From the NCBI RefSeq assembly GCF_988243305.1, contig NZ_OZ547136.1: a stretch of 64,000 bases of DNA, one strand, 5' to 3'. A program made the position numbers and the translations under genes. Every line of letters starts with the position of its first letter. Positions within the stretch are counted from its first letter, which is position 1. The notes below the pieces were generated by a model. That model did not search any database. It was not told where the DNA came from and saw only the letters and a list, made by a program, of their open reading frames with translations. Below, piece by piece: positions 22,212-24,491 of the stretch.

Positions 22212-22778
22212 ATGCTTGAACTTAATGCTAAAACCACTGCGCTGGTGGTGATTGATTTACAAGAAGGCATCTTACCTTTTGCCGGAGGTCCACATACTGC
22301 CGATGAGGTGGTTAATCGCGCCGGGAAGCTGGCGGCGAAATTTCGCGCGAGCGGTCAGCCCGTGTTTCTGGTGCGCGTTGGCTGGTCTGCCGATTATGCC
22401 GAAGCATTAAAACAGCTGGTTGATGTCCCCTCCCCCGCGAAAGTGTTACCCGAAAACTGGTGGCAACATCCTGCTGCATTAGGTGCAACCGACAGCGATA
22501 TCGAAATCATCAAACGTCAATGGGGTGCGTTTTACGGTACGGATCTGGAGTTGCAACTGCGCCGCCGGGGTATCGATACAATAGTATTATGTGGGATCTC
22601 GACCAATATCGGTGTTGAATCCACCGCCCGCAATGCCTGGGAACTCGGTTTTAATCTGGTGATTGCCGAAGACGCCTGCAGCGCCGCCAGCGCCGAGCAG
22701 CACAATAACAGCATCAACCATATCTACCCACGCATCGCCCGTGTGCGCAGTGTGGAAGAGATCCTCAACGCATTATGA
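22212..22778 (+). CDS. yecD: Isochorismatase-family hydrolase
   Basis: ORF 22197..22778 trimmed to the [17 protein letters not shown] start. Confidence 0.85.
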
Positions 22779-22870
22779 TTTACATCGGTCTGCCGCAATG
22801 GTCGCATCCTAAATGGGTGCGGTTGGGGATCACCAGCCTTGAAGAGTATGCCCGCCACTTTAACTGCGTG
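22775..22870 (+). pseudogene. yecE: 5' fragment of yecE truncated by prophage integration
   Basis: Encodes [32 protein letters not shown], then diverges into AT-rich phage DNA with a stop within a few codons. Confidence 0.7.
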
Positions 22871-22880
22871 ATACGGAATT
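22860..22880. other. Prophage/host junction (bacterial attachment site within yecE)
   Basis: Point where yecE homology ends; exact core not determinable from one junction. Confidence 0.5.
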
Positions 22881-22998
22881 TTTAAAAATCACTAAAGAAC
22901 GCCCAAGAGCATGTTTTTTATTTAGAAGAATCAAAGCGTTGTATTTCCATGTCATATAAAAATCGGCAAAGTTCATATGTAACAAAGTGTCCCAATCA

Positions 22999-23046
22999 TG
23001 CCCCAAAATGCCCCACAACAAATATTTTTGCCCCATGCATGCCCCA
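22999..23046. repeat. Four phased TGCCCCA repeats
   Basis: tgcccca at 22999, 23009, 23029 and 23040, spaced about one or two helical turns. Confidence 0.6.
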
Positions 23047-23067
23047 AAAAATCACTTTCCTTCACCC

Positions 23068-23117
23068 TTGACACTGTTTATCCATACAGTTAAAAATGAT
23101 ACTGTATACAAACACAG
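23068..23117 (+). promoter_or_regulatory. Sigma70-like promoter with two LexA boxes upstream of the dinI-like gene
   Basis: -35 TTGACA (23068-23073), 17-bp spacer, -10 taaaaat (23091-23097); CTGT-N8-ACAG boxes at 23074-23089 and 23102-23117. Confidence 0.6.
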
Positions 23118-23132
23118 TGTAGAGGGACTTTT

Positions 23133-23381
23133 ATGCGTATTGAAATCTGCATAGCCAAAGAAAAAATGACTAAAATGCCAACCGGTGCTGTGGATGCGTT
23201 AAAGGAAGAATTAACTCGGCGCATCAGTAAGCGTTATGACGATGTAGAAGTGATCGTAAAAGCCACCAGCAATGATGGGCTTTCTGTTACACGCACAGCA
23301 GATAAGGATTCTGCAAAAACATTTGTTCAGGAGACTCTGAAAGATACCTGGGAGTCTGCTGACGAGTGGTTTGTTCACTAA
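23133..23381 (+). CDS. DinI-family DNA damage-inducible protein
   Basis: 82-aa ORF, size and sequence character of DinI; SOS boxes upstream. Confidence 0.8.
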
Positions 23382-23448
23382 TAAACACGTAAAATCGGTA
23401 ACGGCTGGAAATCATTCAATACTCGCACTATCGAAAGTTCACCAGCCA

Positions 23449-23822: not shown

Positions 23823-24491
23823 ATGGTGAAATCAATGAAAAAAAACACAGATGATGGGGCTAAAATTTACACACCACTTACCCTAAAGCTTTATGACTGG
23901 TGGGTTTTGGGAGTATCAAATCGGCTTGCATGGGGATGTCCTACAAAGGAACACCTTCTTCCACACTTTCTGGAACATTTAGGTAACAACCATCTGGATA
24001 TTGGTGTTGGAACTGGGTTTTATCTTACTCACGTACCTGAGAGTAGTCTGATATCTTTAATGGATTTGAACGAAGCTAGCCTGAACGCGGCATCTACAAG
24101 GGCTGGGGAATCAAAAATTAAACATAAAATTAGCCATGATGTTTTTGAACCTTATCCCGCGGCGTTACATGGTCAATTTGATTCCATTTCCATGTTTTAC
24201 CTTCTTCACTGCCTGCCTGGAAATATATCTACAAAAAGCTGTGTAATACGCAATGCGGCGCAGGCCTTAACTGACGATGGAACTCTATACGGAGCCACAA
24301 TTCTTGGCGATGGAGTTGTGCACAATAGCTTCGGTCAAAAACTGATGCGCATTTACAATCAGAAAGGCATCTTTTCAAACACAAAAGATTCCGAAGAAGG
24401 CTTAACACATATACTCTCAGAGCATTTCGAGAATGTTAAAACCAAGGTTCAAGGTACTGTAGTAATGTTTTCCGCTTCAGGGAAAAAATAG
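23823..24491 (+). CDS. Class I SAM-dependent methyltransferase-like protein (cargo gene)
   Basis: 222-aa ORF with Rossmann motif-I-like LDIGVGTGFY; opposite strand to the tail genes; substrate unknown. Confidence 0.55.
   Translation: MVKSMKKNTDDGAKIYTPLTLKLYDWWVLGVSNRLAWGCPTKEHLLPHFLEHLGNNHLDIGVGTGFYLTHVPESSLISLMDLNEASLNAASTRAGESKIKHKISHDVFEPYPAALHGQFDSISMFYLLHCLPGNISTKSCVIRNAAQALTDDGTLYGATILGDGVVHNSFGQKLMRIYNQKGIFSNTKDSEEGLTHILSEHFENVKTKVQGTVVMFSASGKK

Follow-up and report, generated by a model that had tools for sequence, protein, structure and literature searches.

TGCCCCA repeats beside a yecE prophage junction are very probably arm-type sites of the phage integrase

The sequence comparisons reported here indicate that a phased array of five short repeats at positions 22988-23046 very probably represents the arm-type sites for the integrase of a yecE-inserted lambdoid prophage, on the int-distal (P-like) arm of its attachment site. 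Positions refer to the window, i.e., the whole stretch of 64,000 nucleotides that was analysed (contig NZ_OZ547136.1). An earlier note had described four TGCCCCA copies spaced at 10, 20 and 11 bp on the phage side of the yecE junction, just upstream of the dinI promoter, and had proposed a protein-binding array, for instance integrase arm-type sites. The four copies and their spacing are confirmed (plus-strand starts at 22999, 23009, 23029 and 23040), and so is their location, since they lie beyond the attachment core TTAACTGCGTG (22860-22870) and the last one ends 22 bp before the -35 hexamer. The array extends over 22988-23046 because a fifth copy, TGTCCCA, is present at 22988, and the start-to-start spacings of the five sites are 11, 10, 20 and 11 bp. 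The proposal of arm-type sites is, in turn, supported by the comparison of attP regions. The features of the region are the following:

22775-22870, plus strand: 5' fragment of the host yecE gene (ATG at 22775), cut off by the prophage insertion
22860-22870, no strand assigned: att core, 11-bp identity TTAACTGCGTG common to both junctions, here at the int-distal junction (lambda attR equivalent)
22895-22910, plus strand: conserved block AAGAACGCCCAAGAGC (family consensus AAGAWCGYCCARGAGC), 25-40 bp from the core
22929-22941, plus strand: candidate IHF site AATCAAAGCGTTG, proposed from a perfect match to the consensus WATCARNNNNTTR
22951-22979, plus strand: direct repeat gTCATATaa / tTCATATgt with 21-bp spacing, core-proximal of the array, seen in the sequence
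22988-22994, plus strand: predicted arm-type site 1, TGTCCCA (degenerate, one mismatch), 11 bp upstream of site 2
22999-23005, plus strand: predicted arm-type site 2, TGCCCCA, invariant in all 10 aligned P arms
23009-23015, plus strand: predicted arm-type site 3, TGCCCCA, an extra site that is decayed or absent in most relatives
23029-23035, plus strand: predicted arm-type site 4, TGCCCCA, first member of the second pair
23040-23046, plus strand: predicted arm-type site 5, TGCCCCA, second member of the second pair
23068-23117, plus strand: dinI promoter module (sigma-70), with the -35 hexamer TTGACA at 23068-23073 and the -10 element near 23091-23097
23074-23089 and 23102-23117, plus strand: LexA boxes CTGTTTATCCATACAG (in the spacer) and CTGTATACAAACACAG (just downstream of the -10 element), read in the sequence
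23133-23381, plus strand: DinI-family gene (Pfam DinI PF06183, E = 1.1e-19)

TGCCCCA is not generally enriched in the window, since its seven exact copies are to be compared with the 10.9 expected from shuffles, and four of these seven fall within 48 bp. Nowhere else in the window does any 7-mer occur four times without overlap within 55 bp; when the window was simulated with a first-order Markov model, four copies were reached in none of 200 runs and three copies in 41. Sites 1 and 2 constitute the family-invariant pair TGYCCCA-N4-TGCCCCA, while the second pair (sites 4 and 5) is also found in CharmingMan, phiP27, the phi80/mEp237 relic and a 933W-type phage. At the aligned position of site 3, CharmingMan has CGTCCTA and phiP27 has CGTCCCG, and a third intact site is present in Stx2_12E129_yecE and phi330. 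The whole array stands 118-176 bp from the core, to which the heptamer is unrelated in sequence, and the motif remains constant while the cores differ among phages.

At this junction, the end of yecD is followed by the start of yecE at 22775, which is interrupted after TTAACTGCGTG. A truncated yecE coding sequence is similarly annotated after yecD in the relative NZ_CP053247.1, and in relatives the far junction shows the remainder of the gene after int. The left junction reads ...cactTTAACTGCGTGatacgg, the right junction in one relative (L002) reads ...catgTTAACTGTGTGgagggc, and the same 11-bp core is annotated as attR in phiP27. Beyond the core lies a lambdoid prophage whose structural genes are on the minus strand; the junction present in the window is therefore the tail-fibre end, equivalent to lambda attR (P arm). 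It is carried by 237 complete E. coli genomes.

Several elements are found between the core and the array. When 10 P arms were aligned, taken from phages whose core sites differ, only two islands proved invariant, namely the block at 22895-22910 and the heptamer pair; the block is located at a constant 80-88 bp before the first arm site. It is presumably a protein-binding site. By eye, it does not fit the IHF consensus, and it could be either a weak extra arm-like site (CGCCCAA) or the site of another factor. The heptamers themselves do not match WATCARNNNNTTR and were rejected as IHF sites, separate perfect matches being found elsewhere (22929-22941 and the int stop codon). At the aligned position of the first of these matches, phi80 has AATCAGTGCATTA and phiP27 has ATTCAATGCGTTA. 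The direct repeats at 22951-22979 are, with low confidence, candidate sites for the excisionase (Xis). At the equivalent place, core-proximal of the array, other phages of the family exhibit different short direct repeats: TTCGACGAA occurs three times in phi330 and Stx2_12E129_yecE, and TAACGAAMTT twice in RothC and AsXd-1. Further into the prophage, between dinI and a tail-fibre assembly gene, a 222-aa ORF (23823-24491, plus strand, opposite to the structural genes) matches class I SAM-dependent methyltransferase domains (Methyltransf_12/23/25/11). This ORF is missing at the equivalent position in NZ_CP053247.1 and PhiR49_2 and is probably a cargo ('moron') gene.

The opposite prophage junction, which the earlier note had suggested inspecting for arm-site symmetry, gave a positive answer: relatives with the window's arm (NZ_CP053247.1, PhiR49_2 and NZ_CP142949.1) carry TGTCCCAatgaTGCCCCA there, in the orientation of the array. 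As no E. coli genome in the collection is identical to the window across the junction, the far junction was read in close relatives, the best E. coli genome being 98.9% identical across the junction region (NZ_CP053247.1, window 22700-23400). At the far junction of this genome, where the core reads TTAACTGTGTG, the sole nearby TGYCCCA copies are those of TGTCCCAatgaTGCCCCA. They form part of the final codons of int, at a distance of 64 bp from the core, and have the orientation of the window array. Among relatives with the window's arm, this int-side partner pair is found 64-81 bp from the core. Both arms also occur together in PhiR49_2, whose record is a complete phage genome from strain ECOR13: the int-side pair is at one of its ends, and the opposite end has the five sites, in an arm that shows 100% identity to the window. 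Finally, NZ_CP142949.1 is the best match to the window's right end, with 99.6% identity over the last 4 kb. Some 9 kb further on, this genome encodes an excisionase and then the identical tyrosine integrase (WP_000362005.1, 437 aa), after which comes what remains of yecE. The integrase of the window's prophage is expected at about this distance, ~9 kb past the right end, its identity being deduced from the relatives.

Joined through the core, the two junctions yield an attP in which two sites within the 3' end of int (at -63 and -52 relative to its stop codon) are followed by AATCAGTAAGTTA, a perfect IHF consensus over the int stop codon in relatives, then by the core (+19 to +29), the conserved block, the IHF match AATCAAAGCGTTG and the five sites (+147 to +205). 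As for arm-type sites in general, the repeats are thus located in the arms of attP, outside the crossover core and on both sides of it. In the same place, the annotation pipeline calls in relatives a 256-aa 'yecE' that begins inside the int 3' end with a 19-bp overlap (L002 8501-8519 / L099 25108-25126). Its start is apparently a non-canonical ATT codon, and phage sequence is in frame there with the 3' part of yecE.

How far the two-arm layout extends was examined in a phage collection, in which tblastn with the integrase retrieved 245 phage records with related integrases. Integrases of 933W and many Stx phages are 68-76% identical, those of Rac-like phages 43%, and those of phiCTX and BPP-1 28-30%; relatives are also found in phages of Klebsiella, Enterobacter, Yersinia, Aeromonas and Providencia. 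A scan of IMG/VR added 80 loci, which are all 95-100% identical, mostly end at the int stop and are unusable for divergence. Nine records that are uncut at the attachment site were compared, and eight of these intact attP regions display the two-arm layout. These eight belong to phages of E. coli, Klebsiella, Enterobacter, Aeromonas and Providencia that have different core sites and whose integrases share 51-85% identity with that of the yecE type. In each of them, a pair is located between -63 and -22 relative to the int stop, and a further one or two pairs between +146 and +215; measured from the core, the latter are ~120-180 bp away on the int-distal side. All sites are in direct orientation, and the DNA separating the pairs, cores included, varies from phage to phage. 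The pairs are 207-211 bp apart, with the exception of phi330 (226 bp), which has a 20-bp duplication. This duplication is a perfect tandem one (cctgtcacgttacgcgcgtg twice) at the presumed attP core (PV189401.1, L092 ~2527-2566). In the Yersinia phage YP3 (PV092592.1, L095 2494-3100), the int-side pair is present and a second pair was not found within 600 bp downstream; an ORF begins 93 bp after int. Either the P arm of this phage was replaced or its attP is defective.

TGCCCCA is the sole 7-mer common to all 10 attP regions compared (41 copies), and the same comparison performed on a control stretch of int coding sequence revealed nothing comparable. The phages with different cores that share the arm motif include those with the yecE core TTAACTGCGTG, the 933W type, IdasGreatGrand, CobraSix, AsXd-1 and Providencia phages. 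The motif is kept down to integrases of 36-43% identity, in five host genera, and where the integrase N-terminal domain is 47-92% identical. At the lower end of this range, pAEv1818 (36%) carries CGCCCCA-N4-TGCCCCA on both arms; still further away, phiCTX (30%) exhibits GTTCCCA-N4-GTTCCCA on either side of the core annotated in its record. In these sequences, the layout persists while the motif drifts with the integrase protein and tracks its N-terminal domain across relatives.

The location of one pair inside int raised an additional line of evidence. There, the pair is read as xxT GCC CCA nnn nTG CCC CAn. Among the 56 columns with an invariant four-fold-degenerate residue in 10 integrases, the third base is invariant in only three, and two of these three frozen third bases are those of the two proline codons inside the heptamer pair. 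Moreover, the int ORF of a Rac-like phage (integrase 43% identical) ends ahead of the pair, leaving it in non-coding DNA (TTTGCCCCCAATTTGCCCCATTT); in phiCTX, both heptamer pairs are non-coding. Since synonymous positions are frozen and the pair of the Rac-like phage is non-coding, the constraint acts on the DNA and not on the peptide.

The integrase itself has the domain that is expected of a protein bound to arm-type sites. Besides the core-binding and catalytic domains, and with a match to Phage_integrase, it contains an N-terminal Arm-DNA-bind_2 domain (PF12167, formerly DUF3596; E = 1e-23), and its N-terminal 75 residues are better conserved than the whole protein. An AF2 model was computed for residues 1-110 (mean pLDDT 81, rising to about 90 over residues 10-60); it contains strands at 10-13, 16-23 and 26-35 and a helix at 38-57. 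This model suggests an arm-binding fold of the lambda/Tn916 type, with scores that are low but consistent; no solved structure gave a sequence match to this N-terminal domain. The presence of PF12167 places the integrase in the IntBPP-1 subgroup. Smyshlyaev et al. (2021; PMC8138268) regard the members of this subgroup as putative integrases, in which three strands and one helix make up the arm-binding domain. The integrases of a Stx2a phage, Gifsy-2 and BPP-1 are among these members.

Modelled on lambda, the arm-type sites may work as follows. The yecE integrase would act as a heterobivalent tyrosine recombinase, with its catalytic and core-binding domains at TTAACTGCGTG and its small N-terminal domain on the TGCCCCA repeats. 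Sites spaced by 10-11 bp on one face of the helix would allow several integrase protomers to load side by side, and bends of the IHF type, presumably at the two consensus matches, would loop the two arms towards the core and bring the protomers bound to them within reach of it, in an intasome. This complex would perform integration and, together with Xis, excision, towards which Xis (bound to the candidate sites at 22951-22979) would bias it. After integration, the array would remain at the junction present in the window and the int-side pair at the far junction.

The neighbouring dinI promoter is a unit of its own. The module is 95.7-98.6% identical in mEp460, SKA5, 1720a-02, Lys8385Vzw and phiSTEC1575-Stx2k, and we consider it a separate mosaic unit because it is near-identical in phages with unrelated integrases. 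In mEp460, the dinI promoter and LexA boxes (97% identical from position 23067 of the window on) abut an unrelated Rci-like integrase, and no TGYCCCA is found upstream of this promoter. The homology breakpoint (window ~23067) falls between the last arm site and the -35 hexamer. Conversely, the array is present with no dinI in phiP27, a 933W-type phage, RothC, IdasGreatGrand and CobraSix: in phiP27, it stands at equal distance from an identical core with neither the dinI gene nor its promoter, and in the four others a different gene adjoins it. The module is thus a separable neighbour, outside the attachment machinery.

Relics of the same attachment region are found in other phages. In phi80 (JX871397.1, L004 1896-2161) and mEp237 (L006 1898-2163), a fossil yecE junction comprises an almost intact 5' fragment of yecE, the core TTAACTGCGTG, a P arm with four intact TGYCCCA sites, and dinL, all located 1.2 kb from the phages' own, unrelated attP and int. 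It looks like the trace of an exchange with, or of an aberrant excision of, a yecE-inserting phage. The simplest view of the intact sites is a recent capture, because the yecE fragment is also nearly intact, and a function tied to the adjacent dinL would fit as well. An older relic, PPompW_132418, displays mutated sites (CGTCCCA, TGTCCCA, TGCCCTA and CGTTCCA) that have decayed about as much as their flanks. Such decay in the absence of a cognate integrase counts in favour of arm-type sites. Stx2 phages were previously shown to use yecE-like sequences of this kind, located within PPompW prophages, as attB, in a study in which arm sites are not discussed (Nakamura et al., 2021; PMC8112680).

Among the other explanations of the repeats, binding of the excisionase (recombination directionality factor) rather than of the integrase is the least improbable, yet unlikely. 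Phased direct repeats are typical of Xis sites, as for X1/X1.5/X2 of lambda, and an excisionase gene adjoins int in every phage examined. All these excisionases are homologous (25-85% identity to the yecE-type Xis) and could therefore conceivably recognise a conserved site. We rank this explanation low because the motif is present on both arms of attP, whereas directionality factors of lambda, P22 and Gifsy-1 have their sites on one arm only, an asymmetry that gives directionality. In addition, the core-proximal direct repeats, which vary from phage to phage, are better candidates for Xis sites than the invariant heptamers, and phiCTX retains the two-arm layout with no excisionase annotated in its sequenced int-attP fragment.

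A control of the SOS-regulated dinI promoter, the repeats acting as activator or repressor sites or as a UP-like element, is even less probable. The regulator mentioned by the earlier note could have been of this kind, and proximity argues for it (the last site ends at 23046 and the -35 hexamer begins at 23068), as does the persistence of intact sites beside dinL in the relics of phi80 and mEp237, phages whose own attP is elsewhere. However, TGCCCCA does not match the LexA consensus CTGT-N8-ACAG, and the array and the promoter occur independently of each other. As they dissociate in both directions, with the array lacking dinI in five phages and the mEp460 promoter lacking TGYCCCA, a dinI regulator was rejected. 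It would also leave unexplained the second pair, which is inside int on the other side of the core. As for chance, or a functionless C-rich repeat of low complexity, the heptamer is indeed short and not enriched window-wide, but the odds of such an origin are negligible. Four copies in 55 bp never arose in simulation, the motif is the sole 7-mer shared by the attP regions and is kept at equivalent positions in phages of five genera while the flanks have diverged, and its synonymous positions are frozen; chance is refuted by these observations. The assignment of the array to integrase arm-type sites accordingly retains most of the weight.

Arm-type sites are a textbook element, and no concept is changed by their presence in yecE prophages; a known scheme is filled in for an under-studied integrase family. 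The TGCCCCA motif itself seems to be undescribed for the integrase family that contains 933W and Rac. In a literature search covering few subscription journals, no description of arm sites was found for yecE, 933W, Rac, phiCTX or DUF3596 integrases, and among the matches listed, the papers pairing TGCCCCA with attP concerned phiC31 or transgenesis and not this family. We incline, if only slightly, to a broader proposal in which TGCCCCA-N4-TGCCCCA is the common arm code of the whole DUF3596 (IntBPP-1) subgroup (i.e., 933W, Rac-like and many Klebsiella, Enterobacter, Aeromonas and Providencia phages), with pairs ~208 bp apart that straddle the core and a switch to GTTCCCA in phiCTX-like members. 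Under such a code, the sequence would suffice to predict attP boundaries, and core specificities could be exchanged while the arm scaffold stays constant. The integrase bound to the last site, 22 bp from the -35 hexamer, could moreover modulate the SOS-controlled dinI promoter.

These sites matter since arm-type sites are the control surface of lambda-type recombination, on which directionality, efficiency and the minimal attP depend, and since integrases of the subgroup mobilise Rac-like elements as well as many of the phages carrying Shiga toxin (933W and the Stx phages that insert in yecE and wrbA). The conserved heptamer pair would permit a precise calling of attP and prophage ends and help to explain the relic att fragments of phi80, mEp237 and PPompW. 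Besides, it offers a starting point for biochemistry or for the building of integration vectors.

To conclude, the yecE-type attachment region can be compared with known systems. It resembles that of lambda (sites P1, P2 and P'1-P'3) in that short repeats unrelated to the core are distributed on both arms of an attP of ~240-270 bp, with int-proximal tandem sites ~10-11 bp apart and IHF-consensus matches between arms and core. Measured from the core centre, the int-proximal sites stand at 70-87 bp and the distal ones at 123-181 bp, and the distances in lambda are close to these. A three-strand-plus-helix N-terminal domain is also predicted for the yecE integrase by its structural model, as in lambda Int. 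However, the lambda arm motif (C/AAGTCACTAT) differs from TGCCCCA, the N-terminal domain is PF12167 and not PF09003 of lambda, and the yecE integrase has no sequence-level match to lambda Int outside the catalytic region. Furthermore, the int-proximal sites and the core-proximal IHF match of the yecE type are located inside or over the end of the int ORF, and all the predicted TGYCCCA sites are in direct orientation. Lambda and HK022 share their arm sites and differ in core specificity; similarly, the phages compared here share the arm motif and a conserved N-terminal domain while their cores differ, although the range is wider, with five host genera and integrases down to 36-43% identity that keep TGCCCCA. 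In contrast, there is no detectable sequence similarity to the arm domains of Tn916 Int and of the Yersinia HPI integrase (PDB 1bb8 and 3jtz), and the target repeats differ.

Closer parallels are found within the IntBPP-1 subgroup, with which the yecE integrase shares the DUF3596/PF12167 domain; the integrases of 933W, Stx phages and BPP-1 are among its tblastn relatives, and the paper defining the subgroup classifies proteins without giving arm-site DNA (PMC8138268). Finally, phiCTX of Pseudomonas displays, like the yecE-type phages, a heptamer pair with 11-bp spacing in direct orientation on each side of its annotated core. It differs from them in its GTTCCCA motif, in a shorter distance between pairs (~180 bp versus ~208 bp) and in that neither of its pairs is part of a coding sequence.
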